Assembly: GCA_963765205.1 (NCBI GenBank)
Contig: CAVXVB010000007.1
Coordinates: 128,001 to 192,000, forward strand
From: an uncultured Verrucomicrobiae bacterium
GTDB taxonomy: Bacteria > Verrucomicrobiota > Verrucomicrobiia > Opitutales > JABDGR01
Direction of reading: 5' to 3'
DNA: 64,000 nucleotides
The position numbers and the translations under genes are program-made. Shown piece by piece: positions 48,935-64,000 of this stretch. The notes under the pieces were generated by a model. It saw nothing but the letters and a program-made list of their open reading frames with translations. It was not told where the DNA came from and did no database searches. Every line of letters begins with the position of its first letter. Positions within the stretch are counted from its first letter, which is position 1.

Positions 48935-48986
48935 GGCCGGGAATTAAGAATTAAGAGTTAAGAATTAAGAAGTGAGGGACCGCCCT

Positions 48987-50150
48987 TTACCCCTGCCGGT
49001 CATCCACCCGGGTGATGAACAAATCGTCGTCGCTGATCCAGGTTTCGCGGTCGCGGATGATGGCTTGCGGCGGGAGGGTGGGGGTGAGGGTGCCGATGCC
49101 GGGGAGGCGTTTCACCGCCGTGCCGATGGCCATGAATTCGATGAGGCCCTGGAATTCGTGGACGTGGGTGCGGATGCCGACGACGTCGTCCGCGCCGAGG
49201 GCTTCGGCCTCGCGCTTGAGGAGGCCGAGGGCGTGTTCGCGGGCGTCGTAGATGAGGGAGGTCAAGTCGCTGATTTCCCCGCGCGTGAAGGACTTGAGGG
49301 CGGCCATGAAGCCGCCGACCAGGCCGAGCGAATACACGGCGGTGCCCAGCACGAGCTTGAGCGGCGCGTAGCCCAGATTGGCAAGGTTCCACATTTCCTC
49401 GCAAGTCAGGTCGCTGGTGACGGGTTGGCCGTTCAGCAAATTCCCCGGCAGGGCGGGGTGGCGCGCGGCGGTGCCCATCATGAGCATCTCATGCACGCCT
49501 TGGAAGGGCATGATGCGCGTCTCGATGGCGAGGACGGCGTTCGCGCCGGCCGCCTGGGCCTCGCGCATGACGCGTTCGAGCGCCATGTGCCGCGTGGCGT
49601 TGAACACGTCGCTGTATTCGCGGATTTCCCCGCGCGCCATGCTCTTCAGTCCGCCCAGCAGCCCCCCGCCGACGCCGATGGCGTAGGCGATGTTGCCAAA
49701 GACGAATTTGACCGGCGTGTAGCCGGCATCCATCAGCAGGTAAAGTTCCTGGCCGTCGCAATCCGAGGTGAAGGACACTTGCTCGGGTGCGTCGCCGCTG
49801 CCGTGCAGACAGGAGCCGACGGACAGGAATTCGATGTTCCCGCGAAAATGTTTCAGTTCGCTGGTGACGCCCGCGATACCGACGCCGCCGCGGTCGGTGG
49901 CCTCCTTGGTCATGCGCACATAAGAGGCCTGCCGCCCCTCATGGATGATGTCGGTGATTTGCGTCACTTCGCCGCCGAAGACACTTTGCAGCCCCGCGCC
50001 CAGCCCGCCCAGAAAACCCATCGAGTGGACGCTGTTGCCGATGACGATGTCGCCCGGCGCCAAGCCCTTTTGGCGCAGGCAATACATTTCATTGCCGGAC
50101 AGGCCGGTGAGGACGGAGCGCAGTTGCGGGGGCTTGGAAGAGGAAGGCAT
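48987..50150 (-). CDS. YbjQ-like (heavy-metal-binding-domain family) protein with three tandem repeats
   Basis: Three units of GE(V/I)...(T/S).......R..A..R...EA...G...V.G/A and TSD....E...L...GY.P...V.G. Confidence 0.8.
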   Translation of the reverse strand: MPSSSKPPQLRSVLTGLSGNEMYCLRQKGLAPGDIVIGNSVHSMGFLGGLGAGLQSVFGGEVTQITDIIHEGRQASYVRMTKEATDRGGVGIAGVTSELKHFRGNIEFLSVGSCLHGSGDAPEQVSFTSDCDGQELYLLMDAGYTPVKFVFGNIAYAIGVGGGLLGGLKSMARGEIREYSDVFNATRHMALERVMREAQAAGANAVLAIETRIMPFQGVHEMLMMGTAARHPALPGNLLNGQPVTSDLTCEEMWNLANLGYAPLKLVLGTAVYSLGLVGGFMAALKSFTRGEISDLTSLIYDAREHALGLLKREAEALGADDVVGIRTHVHEFQGLIEFMAIGTAVKRLPGIGTLTPTLPPQAIIRDRETWISDDDLFITRVDDRQG

Positions 50151-50417
50151 GGGAGGGGGGAATTAGGAATTAAGAATTAAGAAGTGAAGAGGGGGGAGGA
50201 GGGCGAAGGGGGGAGGAAAGTCGCAAATTTCAAAAACCCGAAGTCAGAAACCCGAAGTCAGAAATTGGAGATCAGGATTCAGAAATCGGGGTTCGATATT
50301 TAGAGATCAGCAATCAAGAAAGATTCAGAAATCAAAAGGGTAGCGCAACACTTCTTCGATTTCCCAACCGTGGGAAGTGGGTTGTCATCCCCGCCGTTTC
50401 ATGCTATTATGTTCACT

Positions 50418-51569
50418 ATGTCCTCCCATCCTGCTAATTCTTCCCCAATTTCCCATCTTTCCCATGCCCCCCGTTCCCCGGCCCCGCTACCCCCGGCCGC
50501 CTTGGCCCGTGGGCGCGGGGCGCAGGAGAATCCACGGAATCGTTTCGAGCAGGCCGTCGCCGTGTCCGACTGGGAGCAGTTGCCCGCCGAAGAATTGGTG
50601 GAAGCCCGCCGCGCCGACACCGTCTTCATTCCCGACCAGGCCCAGACCATCATCAGCCACAACGACAGCCCCGACCTGCCTTTCCGCAAGAGCATCAACC
50701 CCTACCGGGGCTGCGAACACGGCTGCATCTATTGCTATGCCCGCCCAACCCACGAATACCTCGGTTTCAGCGCCGGGCTGGATTTCGAGACCAAGATCAT
50801 GGTCAAGCACGCCGCGCCGGAATTGCTCGAGGCCGCGCTCAGCCATCCGCGGTGGGATCCGACGTGGGTGAACATGAGCGGGGTGACGGATTGCTACCAG
50901 CCGGCCGAGCGCCGTTTCGCGCTGACCCGGCGCTGTCTGGCCGTGCTCGCGCGCTTCCGCAACCCCGTCACCATCGTCACCAAAAACGCCCTGGTGACGC
51001 GCGACCTCGATCTGCTGGCCGAGATGGCGCACTGGCGCGGCGCGGCGGTGCTCGTCTCGCTCACCTCGCTCGATCCTGATTTGGCCCGGCGGATGGAGCC
51101 GCGCACGGTGTCGCCCCGGCAACGGCTGGACACCGTGGCGCGCCTGGCGGCGGCGGGGGTGCCGGTCGGCGTGAATCTCGCGCCGATGATCCCGGGCTTG
51201 AACGACACCGAGATGCCCGCGCTCATCCAGGCCGCCGCCCAAGCCGGCGCCAGTTTCGCGCATTACCAGGCCCTGCGCCTGCCTTACGCGGTCAAGGACT
51301 TGTTCACGGCCTGGCTGGACCGCGAATTTCCCGGCCAGAAGGCCCGCATTTTGCAGCGGCTCGGCGACTTGCGCGGCGGCGCGGGGCGGTTGAACGACGC
51401 CCGCTTCGGCACCCGCATGACGGGCGAGGGAATTTGGACCGAAACCTGGGCCGGGCTGTTCGCGCTGGCGTGTCGGAAGGCGGGGCTGGAGCCGCGCGCG
51501 CTCGAATTGAACCCGGGGGCATTCCGCCGCCCGGGCCCGCGCCAAGGCACCCTGCCCGGGCTGGAATGA
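50418..51569 (+). CDS. PA0069 family radical SAM protein (SplB-like)
   Basis: RGRGA..NP.NRF, SINPYRGCEHGCIYCYARPTH, TDCYQP.E. Confidence 0.92.
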   Translation: MSSHPANSSPISHLSHAPRSPAPLPPAALARGRGAQENPRNRFEQAVAVSDWEQLPAEELVEARRADTVFIPDQAQTIISHNDSPDLPFRKSINPYRGCEHGCIYCYARPTHEYLGFSAGLDFETKIMVKHAAPELLEAALSHPRWDPTWVNMSGVTDCYQPAERRFALTRRCLAVLARFRNPVTIVTKNALVTRDLDLLAEMAHWRGAAVLVSLTSLDPDLARRMEPRTVSPRQRLDTVARLAAAGVPVGVNLAPMIPGLNDTEMPALIQAAAQAGASFAHYQALRLPYAVKDLFTAWLDREFPGQKARILQRLGDLRGGAGRLNDARFGTRMTGEGIWTETWAGLFALACRKAGLEPRALELNPGAFRRPGPRQGTLPGLE

Positions 51570-52438: not shown

Positions 52439-55400
52439 ATGAACGCAACCCACCAAACTCGTTGTGACCGGACGAAAGTCCGGCCTGGGATCATTTTTCT
52501 TTTTGGCGCCCTGCTGGCGGGCCTCCTGGTTCCCCTGGGGGCGAGAGCGCAATTAACCATCGTGGACAAGGCCGACAATTCGTTGAGCCTGGACCAGGCG
52601 CTCACCGACATTCAGGACATCGCCCTGAACACCACCGCCGGCAGCGGCGACGAGTTGATATTCAACGGCACGCTGGAGTCGTTCAACCAGACGATTTCGG
52701 TGGGCGGCGGGGTTTGGGTGGGCACGCTGGCGGTGCAGAATCCGCAGGGGGCCATTTTTATCACGGGCAATGCGACCAATGCCGCGGCGGCGCTGACGCT
52801 GGGCAACCTGTCGGTCACCGGCGGCGGCGGCATTGACATGAGCAACACCTCGGTGAACCTGAGCATCTCCGCACCCGTCACCCTGGCCAACAGCCTCACG
52901 TTCACGACCAGCGTCAACGGCACCATCACGGTCTCGGGGCCGATTAACGACAACGTCCTGGGCGTCAGCCAGGGTTATGGCATCACCATCGGCCAGTCCA
53001 CCACGGCGGGCGACGTTTTTCTTTCGGGCAACAACACCTTCACGGGCAACCTCACGCTCAACGCCGGCACGCTGTATTTGAGTGGAAACAACAGCGCGGG
53101 CAACGGCGCGCTGGTCATCAACTCCGGCGTGCTGGAGAACAACAGCGGCAACGCGATTGTGCTCAATATTCCCGTCGTCATCGGCACGGCCGGGAACGCG
53201 ACGAGCGGCAACTTCACGTTCGACACCCAAGGCAATTCCAGCATCGCCAACGCTTCGAACAGCATGGTGTTCAACGATGGCGTCACGCTGGCGGTAAACA
53301 CAACGGTGACGACTTCCACGAACAGCGGGTCGTATGGTGGTTCCGGGAACCTGACCTTTAGCAACGTTACCGGCCCGGGGAACCTGACCCTGAAGGGCGC
53401 AGGCCCGAACCAGTTGGTGCTGGTGGGCACCAATAATTTTGGCGGCGGCGTGAACTCGGTGACGCCGGTGCTGACCATCAGTTCGGGGTCGGTGCGGTTG
53501 GGGTCGAACGGTTCGGTAACCGGCATCCCCGCGGAAATGGGCACGATTGCGGGTAACATTAACTCCGCCGGCGCGTTGCTCATCTTTAACGAGCCCTCGA
53601 ACTACACGGTCACGAACAACATCACCGGGACGGGCGGCGTGCAGCAACTCAGCACCAATAATACACTGACCTTCGGGATCACGGAGACCTACAGCGGCAC
53701 CACGACCGCCACCGGCCCGATTCAGCTCGGCTATTTTGGCCCCAACTTCAGCGGCAATTCCGCCTTCGGCATCCTGACGGCCAGCAACATTTCCATCGGT
53801 AATGGCAGTGCCCTCACCTTTGCCGAGCCGGGCAGCACCACTTATAATGGAACCATTTCCGGCGGCAATGGAGGGACTTCAGTGACCCTGACCGGGGCCG
53901 GGGTCCTGGCGAATGCCACCTACACGACCAACCAGACGGGCGCGAACAACAATTTGACCTTTGCGGCGAACACCTCGAACGCCTCCCTGGTTGGCGGCGC
54001 GGGCGACAACATCACGGTAACCTATATATATACCGGGGCGAATGCGGCGGAAGCGGTGGCGGTCAACGGCACGGCGATTACGGTCACCCTTGGGGCCACC
54101 GGGGGCAACACCGCCAGCGTGACCACGAACCTGAGCGGGAACAAGGACATCACTTACACGGCGGTGAACGCCGGGGCGGGGGCCGGCAACATCAACATTC
54201 AGTATGCCCAAAGCTCGACCTCGAACATCACCACGGCGTCGGTCAGCAACGGCAACATCATCGTGAGCCTGGCCAACGCCACGGCGAATGCCACGGCGCA
54301 GAATGTCATCAACGCCATCATGAACAATGTGCAGACGAATGCGCTGGTGACGGCAACGCTTGCGCCGGGCAGCGCCGGCAACGGCACGGAAGTGGCCACG
54401 ACGTCCAACATCACCCTGGCCGACACCGGCCCGGTGATAACCGCCACCACCGGCCCGGGCGCCTATGTTGCGGGGGTGAACTCGACCATCACCTCGACGG
54501 CCAATTCCATCATGGCCGATTTGAACATCAACAGCACCGCCAATGCGGTGATTAGCACCTCGCTGGCGAGCAGTGACGGCGGGGTCGGCACCGGGGCCTT
54601 GACGTTCGAATCTAGTCAGCGCGCTGGTGGGCACGGCGAATCTGACGGGCGGCACGAACCCCGCCATCACGCTGACCCTGGGCAATTTGACGAATGGGAG
54701 CAGTTACAATGGCACGACGACCATCAGCGCCGGCACCATCGTGATGGCCAACTCCTCGGCCTTGGGCAATTCGACGCTCATATATAATACCGGCGGCGGG
54801 GTTTTGAGCTTCGGCACCTTGACGACGGCGAATTTGGGCGGCTTGAGCGGGAACCAGAATCTGGCGCTCACGAATGCCACCGGAACCAACATCACGTTGA
54901 ACGTGGGCGGGGACGGCGCGAGCACCACTTACACCGGCGTGCTTTCGGGCAACTTGGGCAACTTCACCAAGTCCGGCGGCGGCACGCTATATTTGACGCA
55001 AAACAACACTTACACCGGTTTCACCAACATTACGGGCGGCCAGCTTGAAATTGGCAATATAAACGCCTTGGGCGCCAACGTTGATGGCGCGGCCAATAGC
55101 AATACCAGCCTCCAAGCGGCGAGCTTGAACATCAGCGGCGGCGGCGTGGAATGGGCGCCGAATTACCTGAGCACCTCCGGGGACAATGGCGACTTCACCG
55201 GGAAACTGGGCGTCCCCTCCCCCTCGACGCCGAATATCGGCAATGCGAATTTTAACACCAATGGCAACAACATCACCCTCACCAACAATATCCTGTTCCC
55301 GAATGGTACTTACGCTCTCTCGGGCAATGTCGGCATGACGGCGGTGCCCGGCAATGCCAGCGAGACCATCACCAAGTCCGGCACCGGCACCCTGGTGTTG

Positions 55401-58400
55401 GCCGAACCGTTGACAATCAATGTTACGACCGGCGGCAATGGCTCCGCCACTTCCGCGACCGTGAACGTAACGAACGGGACCTTGCAATTGGGCAATTTCG
55501 CAGTGGCGGGCGGGCAGCCGGTGAGCACCGCCGTCGGCGCCACCTTCAGCATCGCCTACAACATTTCGGACAACGCGAACCTGACGATGGAGGAACCGGT
55601 TTCGGCGACGATTAGCGGCGCGATTTCCGGCAACGGCGTCCTCAACGTCAACTCGACCGCCGGGCAGGTGGCGAATTTGACCACGACGGTGGCCGGGGCC
55701 AACAATGACATTCTTTATACGGCGGCCTCGGGCGTAGGCCCGACGGGAAACAACATCACCGTCGCTTATAACACGGGGTTTACCAACAGCTCCTTGGATA
55801 GCCAATATGCCAATGGCACCGGCGCGCCGACCTTTTCGGTATCGGGCAACGCGATCACGGTGAATCTGGCGAATGACGGAACCGCGCATGGCGCCAATTT
55901 TACGACCACTTTTGGCAGCAATAATGACGTCACCTACACGGCGAACACCTCGACGGAGTTTGGGGCGGCGGGCAACGGCATCAACATTGCCTACGTCAAC
56001 CCGAACGCCACCACGACGAGCACGACCGCCGTCGTTAATGCCACGACCAACACCATCACCGTCAACCTGGCGAACACGGGCTATGCCACGGCGAACCAAA
56101 CCGTGCAGGGGCTTACTTACACGGCCAACACGACGAATTTTGGCGGCACGGCCGGCAACGGCATCAGTGTCAGCTACGTGAATCCGGAGACCAGTAACGC
56201 GCCGCTCGGCTTTGTGGTGAACGGCACGAACCTGACGGTGAATTTGGCCACCGGGAGTTTCACCAGCGCGAACTTGGCCACCGGGCCCGCCAACGGGAAT
56301 ATTACCTACACGGCCAAGGCCAACGGTACGGCGACCGACAACATTCAAGTTGCCTATGTGGTTGCCGGCAATAACACCCCCCTGACGCTAAATGTCACCG
56401 GCAACCTCATTACGGTTAATCTGGCGACGGGCCCCAGCGGCACAGTCAGCACCACGGCCGCGACGTTGATCACGACCATAAACGGCAATTCCTCGGCCAA
56501 CGCCGTGCTGACGGCGGCCAACACGACGGGCAGCACGGGTGCTTCGACGCTGACGGCGTTAAGCGCGACGAACTTGACCGGCGGCTTGAACGGCGCCTCC
56601 GCGGCCAATCTCTCCACCAACAGCACGGCCACCGGCAGCAATGTCACCTTTACGTCGGTCGGGCTGGGCACGGCGCAGGACAACATTAAAGTTGCGTATG
56701 TCATTCCGTCCACGGCGAACTCCCCGCTTTCCATCGGGGTCTCGGGCAACAACATTACGGTGAATTTGGCGACCAATGGCGCCGATGCCCCGACGACGAC
56801 GGCGGCGCAATTGGTCACGGCCATCGCTTCGACGCCCCTGGCCGCCAATCTCGTCTCGGCCAGCGACCCCATCGGCAACGGCACGGGGGTGGTCGCGCTG
56901 TCCAATGTCAGCCTGACGAGTCTGGCGAATGCCACGGATCCCTCGATTACCACGAACGCCACCGCCCTGCAGACGGCGCTGACGGCCAATCTGACCTCCA
57001 ATGCCACGTTGGGCGCCTTGCTCAGCGCCGTGGCCGGGACGGGCACGAGCAACCTGACGACGGCGGGCGCAACGGCTTTTGCGAATGGTTCCACCGGCAC
57101 GATAACGGCCAACGCGTCCCAGGTGGTCACGGCGGTTAATGCGGTGGCCAGCGCTCTGGTGACGGCGGCTGTCGCGAGTAACGAGACAGGTGCGGGGCTA
57201 ATCACGAATGGCACGGGAACCATCCTGGCCACGAATCTCACTGGCGGACTGAACCCGAACATCACGACGACGGCGGAGGACCTGCTGACGGCGATCTCCG
57301 GAAACACGAACGTGCTGAACCTGGTGTCGGCGAATCTGGCCTCCGGGAACGACGTGGGCGAGGGCTTGCTGACGGGGATGAACACCACCAGTTTGGGCGG
57401 GGGCGCGATTTCGACGGCCACCACGCTGACGCTCACCGGCAGCAACAGTTTCAACGGGACGATCAACCTCAATGGCGGCACGCTCGCCATCGCGGTCACC
57501 AACGGGACGAACAACAGCACCACCACGCTGCAGAATTCCATCCTGAACTATGCCAACGGCACGTTCAATTACGGCAACTCGACCATCGTGGATTTGGGCG
57601 GCTTGACCGGCAACCAGAACATTGCGCTGACCAACCCGCAGAATGGCAAGAATGTGCAGTTGGTCATTGATGGATTCCAAAGCCCGGCCACGAGCAGCAT
57701 CCTGGGCGGCACCTCGAATACCAGCACCGGCACCGGGGTGCTCTATACCGCGACCCCGAACAACACAAACGGGAACCTTTCCATTGCTTATGTGGTGAGC
57801 GGCAACAACACAGTGCCTTCGGTGACCGTCAGCGGCAACGATGTCATCACGGTCAACCTGGCCACGAATGCGACGGGCGCCGTCGCTTCGAATATGACCG
57901 CCGCCGCCGTGGCGGCGCTGATCAACGCAAATTCCGCCGCAAGCGCGTTGGTGACGGCCGCCAGCAGCGGCACGGGGGTGGTGGGGGCGTTGTCCGCGAC
58001 CACGCTGGCCAATGCGGCCAATCCGACGGCGGGCGCGGCGGGCACGGTGGTGTCGAATGGGGTTTACAGCGGCGTGTTGTTCGGCGCAGGCTCATTGTTC
58101 AAGAGCGGCGTGGGCATCTTGACCTTGAGCGGCACGAACACCTACACGGGCGGCACCGTCATCACGGGCGGCGAAGTGGATTTCGCTTCGGGGGTGAATT
58201 TCGGCACGGGCAACCTGGTGTTGTTCAATGGCGGCATCCAGTGGGCGCCGGGCACGACGACGGACATCTCGAGCCAGTTGAAGGGGCCGTTCGGCGGCCT
58301 GATCGGGAACCTCACGCAGAATTCCGGCAACGACACGCTGGACACGAACGGCAACAATGTGATTTTCAACACGCCGGTTTCCGGCAACGGCACGTTGGTC

Positions 58401-61400
58401 AAGGCCGGCCAAGGGATTCTGACGCTGGCGGTTCCGAACACCTACAGTGGCGGGACCATACTGTCGGCCGGCCTCATAGACTTCAGCTCCCTCAGCGACT
58501 TTGGCACGGGGCAAATTACCCTGGCGGGCGGCGGCTTGCAATGGGGGCTGAACACCAACCTTGACGTCAGCAGCCGGTTAAACCCGGTCGTCATGGGCGC
58601 GAACGCAACCTTCTCGACGCCCAACAATTTGAATCCCGCCTTCACCAACACCAACATCGGGTTGGTGATCACCGCGAACGGCAGCACCACCCTGGCGGAC
58701 GGCTCGAACGGCAACAACATCACGATAATTTTTGGGCTTTCCCCGTCCAACACCACGGGGTTGACGATTAACGGCACCACCATCAACGTGGCCCTGAACA
58801 CGACGGCGACCGCTTCAAACGTGGTCTCGCTCATCAACGGCAACGCCACGGCGGCGGCGCTCGTCAGCGCGGCCCTGGCCCCGGGCAGCAACGGCGGCGG
58901 GGTGGACAACTATTTTGGGACGTTTAAGCTCTCGGGCGGCACGGACAGCACCCTCGACACCCAGGCGAACAATGTGACGTTGAGCGCGTCGCTGACAGGC
59001 CCCGGCGGCCTGGCCAAAGCCGGCAGCGGCATCCTGACGCTGACGGGCATCAACACTTTCACGGGCCCCACGAGCGTGAACGCCGGCACCTTGACGCTGG
59101 GCAACTCGCTGGCCTTGGAAGACAGCACGCTGACGCTGACCAATGGCAGCGTTGGCACGCTCAATTTCGGCAGCCTGACCAGCGTGACGTTTGGCTCCCT
59201 GGCGGGCAACGGCACCTTGGACCTGTCCAATTCGGTCCCCTCCGCCAATGCCACCACCGGGGTCCTGAATTTGATCGTCGGCTTGAACAATCTGAGCACG
59301 ACCTTCAACGGCACCATCACGGACGTAAACAGTTACGGCGGCACGGTGACGAAAGTCGGCAACGGCACCCTGACCCTCACCACGCCGAATACCTACACCG
59401 GCCAGACGTTCCTTAATGGCGGCGCGTTTGACTTTAACAACGTCAATAACTTTGGCGCCAACGGCGACGCCAACCTGACGATCAATGGCACGCTGGGCAC
59501 CAGCGTCATCTGGGCGCCGCAGGCCACGGGTCCGAGCGCGGATATTTCGAGCATCCTCAACAGCACGGGCGGGCTGGTTACCGGGAACATCACCTTCAAT
59601 TCCAACAGCAATGAGGTGACCCTCGCCACGCCGCTGAAGGGCAGCGCGAATTTGACCGCCGCGGCGGGGACGAGCATCCTGACGCTGGCGGGCGGCGTCA
59701 GCTCCAGCGGCCTGCCCAATGTGACGATCACGTCGGGCACCCTTGCGCTGGGCAACATCGGCAGCAATGGCGGCAACACTTCCGGAAACATCGCCATCAA
59801 CAATGGCACCACGTTGTATTTTAATGAGAACACGGCGCAAACCTTCTCGGGCCTGCTTTCCGGCGGGGGCAACATTAATGTCAACCCGGGCATGCCGGCC
59901 CTGAGTGTGGCGGCCGAGTCGCCGGCGAACACGAACCTCAACCTGTTTGCGAACGTCTTTGGGCCGATTAGCAACAACATCACCGTCCAATACGTCAACC
60001 CGGAGGCCAACAACCAGGCGCTGGGCGTCACGGTCAACAACACGACGGCGAGCCTGCTCGTCGGCTCGGTGGGTGCGAACAACGGGATCACGATCACGCC
60101 GAACGCGGCGAATGCGTCGGTGGCGGGCATTTACGGCGACGGCATCACGATCCAATATGTGCAAGGCGGCGGCAACACGACCACGGCGGCCAGCAGCGGC
60201 AACGTCATCACGGTCACTTTGAAAAGCGGCGGGGACACGGCGGCTGACGTCATCACGGCCCTGGCGAACAACGCCACGGTGGCCGCGTTGGTGACGGCGA
60301 CCAACGCGACGGTGGCCAATGTCACCAGCACGGGCGCGGGAATTATCAACACGACGGTGACGACGACGGCGTCGCTGCCGCTGATGGGCGGGGCGACGGC
60401 CATCGTGGCCAGCCTGGCCACGGACGGGAACGGCACGGCGGCCAACGCGACGACCACCTTTGGCAACAACAACGACTTGGTGTTCACCGCCAACGGCACG
60501 GGAGCCACCGGCTACTTTGGTTTCGCGGGCAATAATATCACAGTGCAGTATGTGAATGGCGTGGGCAACAACACCGCCACCACGGCGTCGGTCACGGGCA
60601 ACACGATTACGGTGACCCTGGGCACGAACGGCACCGGGGTGGTAAACGCGACGGCGGCGCAGGTGGCGGCGGCGATTGCGGCCAACACCTCGGTGGCCGC
60701 GTTGGTGACGGTCGCCAATGCCGCGAACAGCAACGGGTTGGGTTTGGTCTCGGCGACGACCTTGAATTTGACGGGCGGCGTGGACCCGAACATCACGACG
60801 TCGGCCAGCGCGCTGCTCTCCGCCCTGAACGGCAACACGACGGTGCTCACCGCGGGATTGGGTTCGGGCAGCAACGGCTCGGGGGATGTCACCAACGGCA
60901 CCTTTACCCTGAGCGGCGGCCTCAATGGCAGCGCGACCCCGGTGACGCTGAGTGACAACAGCAATCTCTTTTCGGGCAACGTCTATTTGAGCAATGGCTC
61001 GCTCACGCTGGGCGCCCCCCTGGCGTTGCAGTATGCCACGGTCAATGACAACCTGGGCGGCGGCACGCTGAGTTTCGGCAGCTTGACGAATGCGACCTTG
61101 GGCGGCCTCACCGGCAATGGCAACCTGGCGCTCGTGACCACGGCCGGCTCGGGGAATGTGACGCTCACTTTGGGCCAGGGTAATGTCAGCAGCGCCTTCT
61201 CCGGCATTATATCCGGCAATGTCAGCACCGGCGCCGGTTCGTTGATCAAGATCGGCTCGGGCACGCTGACGCTGTCCGGCATCAACACCTTCACCGGCGG
61301 CATGGTGATTGAGGGCGGCTTGGTGAATTTCAATTCGGTGCGCAGTTTTGGCAATGGCGGGGCCAACAGCGTCACCCTGCTGGGCGGCGGCATCCAATGG

Positions 61401-64000
61401 GCGACCAACACGGCCACGAATGTTTCCGGCATCCTGAACCCGGTGCTGGCCAGCGGGCCGACGAACGACTTGAACACCTTCGACACCAACGGGAACAGCG
61501 TCACCTTGTCCACGGCGCTGTCGGGCGTGGGCGGCATTGTCAAGCAGGGCGCCGGCACGCTGACGCTGACCGGCAACAACACCTTTATCGGGCCGACGTT
61601 CATCAACGCCGGCAGCCTGGCCTTGGGCAACGGCACGTTGCCGGGCTTCCTGATCAATTCCGCCCTCACCAACAATTCCAGCCTGCTGTTTAACGAGCCG
61701 CTGGACACCGTTTACTCGTCGGTGCTGGGCGGCGGCGGCGGCGTGTCGCAAGCCGGCCAGAACTCGAGCGGCATTTACTCGATCACGACGGGAAATACGA
61801 CGGCCAACAACGGCCTGACCTACGTCGCGACCGTGGCGAACCCGACGGGCGCCGGCGTTACCGTCTCTTATGTGCAAGGCACCGGTTCCACCACGACCGT
61901 GGGGGTTTCCGGCAGCAATATTACGGTGACGCTCCCCGCGGGCGGCGCGAATGCGACCCAGGTGCTGACGGCCCTGACCGGGTGCAGCAGCGCGCTGGCC
62001 TTGGTGACGCCTGAATTGACGCCGGTGATTGCGCCCTCCGTCGCGGTGCCGAATAACACCGGAAATGGCAGTGTCAGCGTGACGGGACCCTTGAATATGA
62101 GCGCGCCGCTTTACCAGGCGACGATCGGTTCGGCCAGCCAAGGCACGGGCTTGACCTTTACGGCGAGCACGGCGACCGCCGGCGCGGCGGGCGGGACCAC
62201 GACGATCCAGTATCTGGCCGGCACAGTTGCGAACCCGACCGTTTCGGTTAACGCGACCAACAACACCGTCATTGTCACCTTGAGCAATGTGACCGCCAAC
62301 AACACGGCCTCGAATGTCTTGGCGGCTTTGACGGCGGCCATTAATAGCAATACCGGCGGCATTGACAATTACCTGAGCAATGTGACCCTCACGCCCGGCC
62401 CGCAGGCATTTGGCGTCACGGCTGGCGCCGGTTTGGTCACGGCGGCGTCGCCGAAATTGATTGCGCCATTTACGAACCTGGTGCTCACCGGCAACAACTC
62501 TTACACCGGCACCACCTCGATCCAGGCGGGCACGCTGGTGGTGGGCAGCACGCTGGCCTTGCGGGACACCACGCTGAACTACAACACCACGACAAGCGGC
62601 ATTCTGGCCTTCGGCTATGCGAACGCGACCGCAAGCTACCCCGTCACGGCGGCCAACATCAATATCTTCAACGGCAACACGGATTTGGCCTTGATCAACA
62701 ACCAGGGCGGCGGCGTGGCCTTCAGCATCGGCGATAATAACGGCAGCTCGAGCTATTCCGGCAACTTAACCGGGCCAGGCTCGATCTTTAAAGTCGGCAG
62801 CGGCACCCTGACGCTCGGCGGCAATCTGAGCAGCTATGCGGGCGGGACGACCGTCGCCGGCGGCACCATCCTGTTGACCTCGGCGGACGACAGCACCTCG
62901 AGCCATCCGCTGGGCACCGGCTTGATCACGATGAACGGCGGCACACTCTCCCTGCCTTCCGGCGACACCTTTGATCCGACCGCGCAAGGGTTCACGTTGG
63001 GCACGGTGACCGCCAACGTGAACGGCACCTTGACCCAGGTTGCGACGAACAGCACACTGATCACCGTTAGTAACCTGACGTTGGCAAGCCCCATCACCGG
63101 CCCCAGCAATGGCGCGGCTTCCGGTTTGGACATCCAAACCGGCAGCAACATCACCACCTTGGTGGCGACCAGCACCTACCTTGGGACGACGACGGTCGGC
63201 GCGGGCACGACCCGAGGCAACCTGACGTTGAGCAACAACGCAACCAGCACCGGCGGTCTGGCGGGGCCGATCAACTTGTCGGGTAACCTGGGCAATTCCA
63301 CCTTTTCGAATCTGACCTTTAACATCAGCAGTTCGGCGCCGGGACTCACCGCCGGCAACTATACGTTTACGCAGAACATCAGCGGCAACGGCAACTTGAG
63401 CGAAAATGGCACCGCCAGCCTGATTCTGTCCGGCACCAATACCTACGACGGCAATACGACGATAGCCGCCGGGGCCGGCAGCATCTATCTGGGAAGCTCG
63501 AATGCCTTGGGCAACAGCACGTATGCGTCCAATAGCACGACGGCCGGCACGCTCCAGTTTCTCGCGGGGGCGGGCGGCACGTTTGTCTTGGGCGGTTTGG
63601 CGGGCAACGCGAGCATCCCCTTGGTGGACACGGGGAATAATCCCGTGATTTTGGCGGTCGGCGCCAACAGCATAACCTCCGCCACGCCCTACAACGGCAC
63701 GCTGTCGGGGGCCGGCGGGCTGATCAAGACGGGGTCGGGCACCCTCGTGCTGGTCGGCAACCAAACTTACACCGGCGCGACGGCGATTCCCTTTGGCACT
63801 TTGCAACTGGGCAACAACACCGCGGGCCTCACGACCGTGTTGACCAGCACCTCGGGCATCAACGATGTTGGCAACCTTGCTTTTGACGAACCGGCGGGCA
63901 CGCTGACCCTCAGCACCCTGATTTCCGGCGGCGGCACCCTGGCGCAAATTGGCAACGTGGGTTCCACGCTCGTGTTCATCAATCCCAATGACGCCCTCAG
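52439..64000 (+). CDS. Giant secreted autotransporter-type protein (>3800 aa, runs off window) with passenger-associated beta-strand repeats and inserted modules; one frameshift near 54605
   Basis: Signal peptide ending GARA-Q; many LxKxGxGTLTLxGxNTY/FTG repeats; after one extra base at about 54605 the next frame appears open to 64000. Confidence 0.92.

Follow-up and report, generated by a model that had tools for sequence, protein, structure and literature searches.

A 64,000-nucleotide stretch of the genome of an uncultured Verrucomicrobiae bacterium (positions 128001-192000 of contig CAVXVB010000007.1, assembly GCA_963765205.1; hereafter the window, in whose coordinates positions are given) contains the first quarter of a giant gene on the + strand, which was followed past the window end in the genome. 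This gene is likely, with a probability of roughly 0.8, to encode a surface-anchored fibre with a trunk of PATR-type beta-helix repeats and with arms of one self-nested domain of ~105 aa, of the type carried by phage tail sheaths, placed in one turn of the trunk repeat. A preliminary description of the window, made from its letters alone, had proposed a giant adhesin-like autotransporter with a branched, recursively nested architecture that was thought to be undescribed. The nesting is borne out by the order of the domain halves in this gene, in its orthologues and in database relatives, while the assignment to the autotransporters and the claim of an undescribed grammar had to be abandoned.

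Bracket order of the nested module

The arms are composed of a module of ~105 aa with a fixed split into an N-terminal half (N-half) of five strands and a C-terminal half (C-half) of one helix and two strands, which agrees with the beta-like and helix-plus-strand halves noted earlier. Hidden Markov models (HMMs) of the two halves were seeded from ten halves of the region 55659-57422 (cut by eye) and iterated on the six frame segments of the gene. At E<=1e-3, these models recovered 33 N-halves and 29 C-halves across the whole gene, 13 of each in the window, and no copy outside the giant gene in the 4.0-Mb genome. In total, 14 units are present in the window, 12 of them firm on both halves, in keeping with the estimate of about 14 copies in the preliminary description.

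Writing each N-half as an opening and each C-half as a closing bracket, the window (all features on the + strand) begins with nest 1, (()), at 53921-54640 (HMM span 53921-54631), whose last C-half contains a frameshift. It is followed by nest 2, (((()()))), at 55674-57410, with five units, a depth of 4 and two sibling guests at the tip. A single unit () detected by the half-HMMs occupies 57708-58022, and a further single unit at 58596-58946 combines a strong C-half (58803-58946, 53-56 bits) with a divergent N-half (58623-58811), which is weak at 6.5 bits and was seen with a broader HMM only. Nest 3, (()()), at 59910-60926 has one host with two guests; the last two single units lie at 61785-62105 (detected by the half-HMMs) and at 62121-62471, the latter with an N-half at 62121-62288 (33 bits) and a C-half placed by alignment only. 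Past the window, the order continues as (()), ((())), (()()) and (()), and then as about ten single units.

For a statistical treatment, halves separated by gaps of <=80 residues were grouped into clusters, and labels were shuffled 2,000 times within clusters. Balanced order was found in 15 of the 19 clusters of the whole gene and in all nine clusters with at least four halves, where shuffling gave 2.5 on average and 7 at most; the balance reported earlier for the inserts in the window is thereby reproduced. Taken as a grammar, the orders (((()()))) and (()()) would correspond to nesting to depth 4 with forks, as had been proposed. The linkers between successive halves are short throughout, with median lengths of 6 (N-N), 5 (N-C), 8.5 (C-N) and 4 (C-C) residues.

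The relation of the nests to the trunk is equally regular. The earlier suggestion that the inserts interrupt passenger repeats, which resume afterwards, holds for all seven nests of depth >=2, each of which lies in the same trunk-repeat position between a '..SGxGxLxQxG..' and a '..LTLTGxNTFxGxxxxxxGTL' stretch. This confinement to a single turn of the PATR repeat makes the deep nests resemble portions of a large super-repeat that was duplicated. Single units (57708-58022, 58596-58946 and those past 71 kb) are found in other trunk positions than the deep nests.

Orthologues provide a further line of evidence. A search of 40 related genomes with the 5-unit nest gave matches in two, both of the same genus. 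One of them (G003) carries two uninterrupted, stop-free open reading frames of 13,111 and 15,328 aa with nests richer than those of the window's gene, and in the other (G004) a single frame is cut at a contig end, leaving at least 8,949 aa. Bracket words in these orthologues include (((()))) (three copies in G003), (()()((()))) and (()(()(()))), and 16 of the 19 clusters with at least four halves (from two full and one partial orthologue) are balanced, against a shuffle mean of 4.3. The counterpart of nest 2 in both G003 orthologues is (((()))) (window 55659-57422 against L012:14999-16450 and L006:712-2241), so that orthologues with different nesting, for which the preliminary description had suggested a search, do exist. 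Because the window's nest has exactly one in-register extra unit over both, with the alignment gap falling inside an N-half, its tip fork arose by a recent tandem duplication of a guest, and the whole unit, judged from these alignments, is the evolutionary module. A metagenome scan yielded 80 loci, each matching one or two units, and no orthologue of the whole of nest 2; a pattern search for related loci in genome contigs gave 187 matches, none of which was confirmed.

Beyond the genus, a profile of nine contiguous units of the window was compared with 1.84 billion representative proteins and matched 2,978 of them at E<=1e-3, 973 at 1e-10 and 50 at 1e-30. When the half-HMMs were applied to the best 150 of the 2,978, 109 of the 141 clusters with at least four halves were balanced (shuffle mean 34), nesting reached depth 5 in two proteins (P0011 and P0064) and dozens of proteins of 250-430 aa were plain (()); unbalanced clusters mostly had a surplus of N-halves. 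Long runs of N-halves, spaced at times by 67 residues and with the C-half undetected, occur in four large proteins (P0007, P0016, P0034 and P0015); in such proteins either the C-halves are too divergent for the HMM or the N-half stands alone as a repeat.

Most of the 58 proteins among these 150 that were scanned with Pfam are without a family. Flagellins account for six of the 58, the module sitting between Flagellin_N and Flagellin_C (once as (())()); one is an FlgE hook protein and two are PATR proteins. PF17481 (Phage_sheath_domII) was hit by four of the 58 at 20-24 bits, under its cut-off of 31.4; in the Pfam scan it had no match on the window's protein, and one relative carries a precomputed PF17481 annotation. 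In a PHROGs scan, 7 of 20 matches hit phrog_8757 ('virion structural protein'), and two units of the window gave no family. A search with an alignment of (()) proteins returned 138 proteins at E<=1e-10. Going by their precomputed Pfam accessions, nine of the 120 listed among these are tail sheath proteins, four are of the FlgE type, two are flagellins, one is of the FliD type and one has the lambda head-decoration family. The small (()) proteins are without a name in any source consulted, the ESM Atlas offered unnamed clusters only (DUF3383 at 0.80 being merely a lead), and full-text literature searches returned no family description of the module as a self-nesting unit. The module is thus a large unannotated family, with no Pfam model reaching its cut-off, that inserts into itself and into loops of exposed structural proteins.

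Trunk, sorting signal and frame changes

Two long open frames run on the + strand from 52376 to the window end and overlap at 54603-54787. The whole gene extends from 52439 to ~92402, that is, over ~40 kb and ~13,300 aa in six stop-to-stop frame segments, all of them rich in N, T, G, S and A. The first segment (52439-54615, +) opens with MNATHQ..., the Met at 52439 being conserved with the orthologue start, and the hydrophobic signal-peptide-like stretch directly after this Met (52439-52552, judged by eye) is followed by PATR-type beta-helix repeats. The second segment (54603-64000, +) belongs to the same gene and runs off the window at 64000; four more frame changes lie downstream before ~92402.

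In Pfam and NCBIfam scans of the window's protein, the trunk repeat was the only thing named (PATR, PF12951, E 5.6e-45 over 12 stretches; TIGR02601, E 6.8e-53), the best-scoring of the 12 matched stretches lying at 61539-61625 (+). The last 500 residues of the gene contain a C-terminal PEP-CTERM signal (PF07589, 25.3 bits against a cut-off of 20.7), and the orthologues end in VPEP...LLLGLRRKR. A C-terminal beta-barrel translocator was not found: Pfam returns PATR and PEP-CTERM alone for the final 500 residues of the gene and for those of one orthologue (the segments at 64-82 kb were not scanned). As the C-terminus is a PEP-CTERM signal without a barrel, the giant protein is not a type Va autotransporter, as the preliminary description had it, but a PEP-CTERM fibre. 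The genome contains two exosortase genes (PF09721, 150 and 121 bits), both on other contigs (C8 and C10), so that neither adjoins the giant gene.

The flanking genes (window 48972-51569; L002:8839-9876) are of unrelated housekeeping types, namely a YbjQ-like gene on the minus strand, a radical SAM gene and ATP synthase subunit a. Neither secretion genes nor exosortase genes are found next to the giant gene, and its neighbours give no functional hint. With regard to the composition of the giant protein, charged residues are nearly absent (K 0.6, R 0.1, D 2.0, E 0.7 and H 0.1 per cent) and Cys is absent altogether. N-x-S/T triplets are enriched in the region 54627-64000 (171 against 100 +/- 8 in shuffles) as well as in two orthologues (606 against 384 and 732 against 467 expected from shuffles); this excess may reflect strand patterns or heavy N-glycosylation.

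The reading frame changes five times along the 40 kb, and each segment is open for 0.8-3.3 thousand codons. The frameshift recognised earlier in the window is present at 54603-54615 (+), where the first frame turns into nonsense and the second opens, with no homopolymer at this junction. One stretch of the gene is common to four runs of one soil-metagenome study, and contigs of those runs were compared with the genome over 64001-84000, a range with four junctions. Relative to the genome, contigs of one run (X1) have one base fewer at 64104 (L001:104), one extra G in a run of eight at 70322 (L001:6322) and one base fewer at 78056 (L001:14056). By arithmetic on the segment starts, these indels fall at three of the five junctions and each has the sign that restores the frame. 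Run X1 is possibly the genome's own sample and is to be read as a second assembly, not as an independent population. The extra G at 70322 could reflect an assembly error or a tract of variable length. Single-base indels are described as breaking giant genes in long-read assemblies in a preprint on such genes (10.1101/2023.11.21.568195). Because the orthologues are uninterrupted, the X1 indels restore the frame and this fault of long-read assemblies is known, the gene is most likely intact and its frameshifts are probably assembly errors.

Fold of the unit and alternative explanations

The fold was approached through an AlphaFold2 model of a (()) nest at 69520-70206 (same gene, past the window), built from an alignment of 44 rows that included three paralogous nests and 40 small (()) proteins. 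This depth-2 model reached a predicted local distance difference test score (pLDDT) of 93.9 and a predicted template modelling score (pTM) of 0.77, and its outer and inner units share the order of five strands, one helix and two strands. In a structural search against representatives, tail sheath proteins came out on top. For the inner unit (model residues 61-169), the closest superposition was that on the phiCD508 sheath (9gb1_1), at Z 8.2 and a root-mean-square deviation (rmsd) of 2.9 A over 96 residues, followed by those on the phi812, Lin1278 and DSY3957 sheaths at Z 6.9-7.1; among the matches to five sheath entries, Z values of 8.2, 7.1, 7.1 and 7.0 were obtained over 81-96 residues at 2.8-3.1 A. 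By entry, Z values for the model included 7.0 (3hxl), 6.3 (9ezm), 2.9 (T4 gp18), 2.8 (FliD D2-D3) and 2.0 (FliC). In phi812 (8q1i_O / 8r5g_N / 9euf_T) the match spans chain residues 47-313 with 91 aligned, or 47-314 with ~90, which suggests that an insert interrupts this domain in the solved structure. A Foldseek search against the PDB gave no match at E<=0.001, its top rows being sheath proteins at E 0.2-0.8, and a sequence profile of the unit found nothing below E 0.26 among PDB chains. The pairing of the halves as one domain, which had been assumed from sequence, is supported by this model.

For nest 2, the outermost halves (N1 and C1) were also predicted together as two chains, from alignments of 78 and 70 halves. 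The pair scored 0.41 against 0.00 for the best control, which was graded as weak support: of 157 solved complexes, 116 pass the mark, as do 2 of 215 mismatches, and the range at or below 0.60 holds only 18 of the 157 solved complexes together with both passing mismatches. At least 96% of the contacts agree between runs and partner pLDDT is at least 71; N1 attains 68-70 with C1 against 38-39 with unrelated partners, and C1 attains 72-73 with N1 against 43. Part of this pass may stem from likeness to solved sheath domains.

Several results weigh against the nested fibre and have to be set beside this evidence. Four of the 19 clusters of the gene are unbalanced at the HMM thresholds, and the C-half at 62292-62465 was undetected by either HMM (-8.1 bits), fitting the unit consensus in a MAFFT alignment only; likewise, three database proteins (P0007, P0016 and P0034) show N-halves only. 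In the depth-2 model, the outer N/C pairing has three supports, namely the high confidence of these halves, their matching secondary structure and superpositions of single-domain chains over model residues 1-206, which are weak at Z 2-2.7. The AlphaFold2 model of nest 2 (55659-57422), from an alignment of three rows (the query and two orthologues), was unusable at pLDDT 34.7 and pTM 0.23; deeper alignments had been discarded for mis-registered halves (N-halves on the wrong level, runs of C-halves on N-half columns and split hosts). Packing at depths 3-4 and at forks would therefore follow from the sequence grammar only. Any C-half might complement any N-half, and N1-C1 is one pair tested, with weak support. 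Lastly, two of the five frameshifts (junctions 1 and 5) are unexplained by the contig comparison, junction 5 (82506-82518) having no indel row there and unproven coverage.

If the N- and C-halves were independent small domains strung like beads, with equal counts arising from block duplications, database proteins with runs of N-halves and no detected C-halves would be accommodated, as would the failed model of the whole of nest 2. Nevertheless, this explanation is highly improbable, since tandem duplication of an NC block yields NCNC and never NNCC, whereas balanced prefix order far exceeds shuffles in this gene (9/9), in the orthologues (16/19) and in the databases (109/141); moreover, the contiguous N plus C superposes as one domain on solved sheath domains, and each half drops by ~30 pLDDT points without the other. 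A pairing other than the nested one (the first N-half with the first C-half, or halves of different molecules in a domain-swapped, cross-linked fibre) draws on the facts that bracket balance cannot separate nested from queue pairing and that the halves of different units are homologous and perhaps interchangeable. It is nonetheless very improbable. As the N-to-C linkers (median 5 residues) are all of the short length seen in free-standing units, the innermost pair would be built like a contiguous domain, as in the depth-2 model, leaving the outer halves to each other; furthermore, the nested form is described for solved sheath structures and for flagellin (PMC11532411, PMC9230969).

Decay of the locus into a pseudogene, or mis-assembly of a repeat, is suggested by five frame changes in 40 kb, of which junction 1 is not at a homopolymer and junctions 1 and 5 are the two without a counterpart in the contigs. 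On the other hand, the long open segments, the uninterrupted orthologues of the same genus, the frame-restoring single-base differences in the X1 contigs and the known effect of long-read indels on giant genes (10.1101/2023.11.21.568195) all argue for an intact gene, and decay or mis-assembly is considered improbable.

Known systems and the proposed assembly of the arms

The grammar itself is not new, contrary to the preliminary description. A 2026 survey of domain insertions describes the Si3 region of the cyanobacterial RNA polymerase beta' subunit, in which sandwich-barrel hybrid motifs are inserted recursively to six levels with multi-guest hosts (PMC13114784). Si3 thus has the same recursive grammar, but differs in its unrelated fold, its location in a cytoplasmic enzyme and its single nest per protein. 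In a survey of flagellar outer domains, D5 of the Geovibrio thiophilus flagellin is a duplicate of D4 inserted in a D4 loop, and D4 is related to FliD D2 (PMC11532411). The module resides within flagellins and also in a FliD-type protein, yet solved FliD and FliC are only weakly similar to the depth-2 model (Z 2.0-2.8), and a flagellin contributes one arm per polymer subunit whereas the giant protein would carry ~19 arms on a single chain.

In structure, the outer domains of tail sheaths come closest to the unit (Z 7-8.2 and an rmsd of 2.8-3.1 A over 81-96 residues), and sheath proteins match the nest profile at E 1e-25 to 1e-45. According to a survey of sheaths, additional domains arise either from a single chain region or from an outgoing and a returning region together, the sheaths of large phages have five or more domains, and there is a likeness to flagellin (PMC9230969). 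Sheaths likewise build outward through domains of outgoing and returning segments (PMC9230969). Their host is a polymerising core, while that of the giant gene is a monomeric beta-helix fibre, and one domain is reused at every level of the giant gene, unlike in sheath outer domains. As for the trunk, its repeat is also that of the PATR passengers of type Va autotransporters, Fusobacterium Fap2 among them; these end in a barrel, where the giant protein has the PEP-CTERM signal. Nested inserts in PATR or PEP-CTERM fibres were not found described in full-text literature searches. Hence, recursive self-insertion with forks is already in print, and the new part is its many-fold use on one beta-helical fibre.

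The assembly proposed for the protein can be outlined as follows. Given the signal-like N-terminus, the PEP-CTERM signal and the two exosortase genes, the fibre would be exported by way of its N-terminal sequence and anchored at the cell surface by the PEP-CTERM signal and the exosortases. Copies of the ~105-aa domain, which belongs to a type found on the outer face of phage tail sheaths, flagellins, hooks and caps, would have been inserted into one particular turn of the trunk repeat. The chain ends of the unit would lie together, and its loop between strand 5 and the helix would accept another copy, so that repeated insertion would produce arms one to four domains deep and tandem duplication of a guest would produce forks. 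Two short linkers (median 4-8 residues) connect each domain to the next, so that the arms are expected to form stiff stacks off the trunk. With the guest on a loop far from the chain ends of its host, they would point outward in the manner of sheath and flagellin domains. Estimated from the size of the domain and the rise of the helix, a depth-4 arm would measure roughly 10-15 nm and the trunk perhaps 0.1-0.2 micrometres; the outward-stacked geometry of the deeper arms and their surface display are likewise extrapolated. By analogy with sheaths and flagella, on which such domains are exposed and dispensable, the fibre may function in adhesion or as a protective brush coat, possibly glycan-binding or glycosylated.

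A bolder form of this proposal is held tentatively, its chances being put somewhat short of even. In this form, one polypeptide would be a true tree, with a beta-helix trunk and ~19 arms, each a branching stack of up to six domains of identical fold; its bracket word would change rapidly from one sister species to another as units are duplicated and inserted, (((()()))) in the window standing against (((()))) and (()(()(()))) in the same genus, and the module would be a general self-inserting block common to phage sheaths, flagella and surface fibres.

For annotation, the findings replace an autotransporter with a PEP-CTERM fibre whose frameshifts are probably assembly errors. Domain-parsing and structure-prediction tools fail on the deep nest, which could serve to test them, and the protein offers a natural template for the design of branched or brush-like proteins. 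With regard to biology, one insertion principle used many times on a single beta-helical fibre would result in a branched protein, which gives a first clue to how soil Verrucomicrobia, a little-studied group, construct and diversify their surface. If the proposal is true, a single self-inserting block would serve the variable projecting surface structures of phage sheaths, flagella and cell-surface fibres alike.

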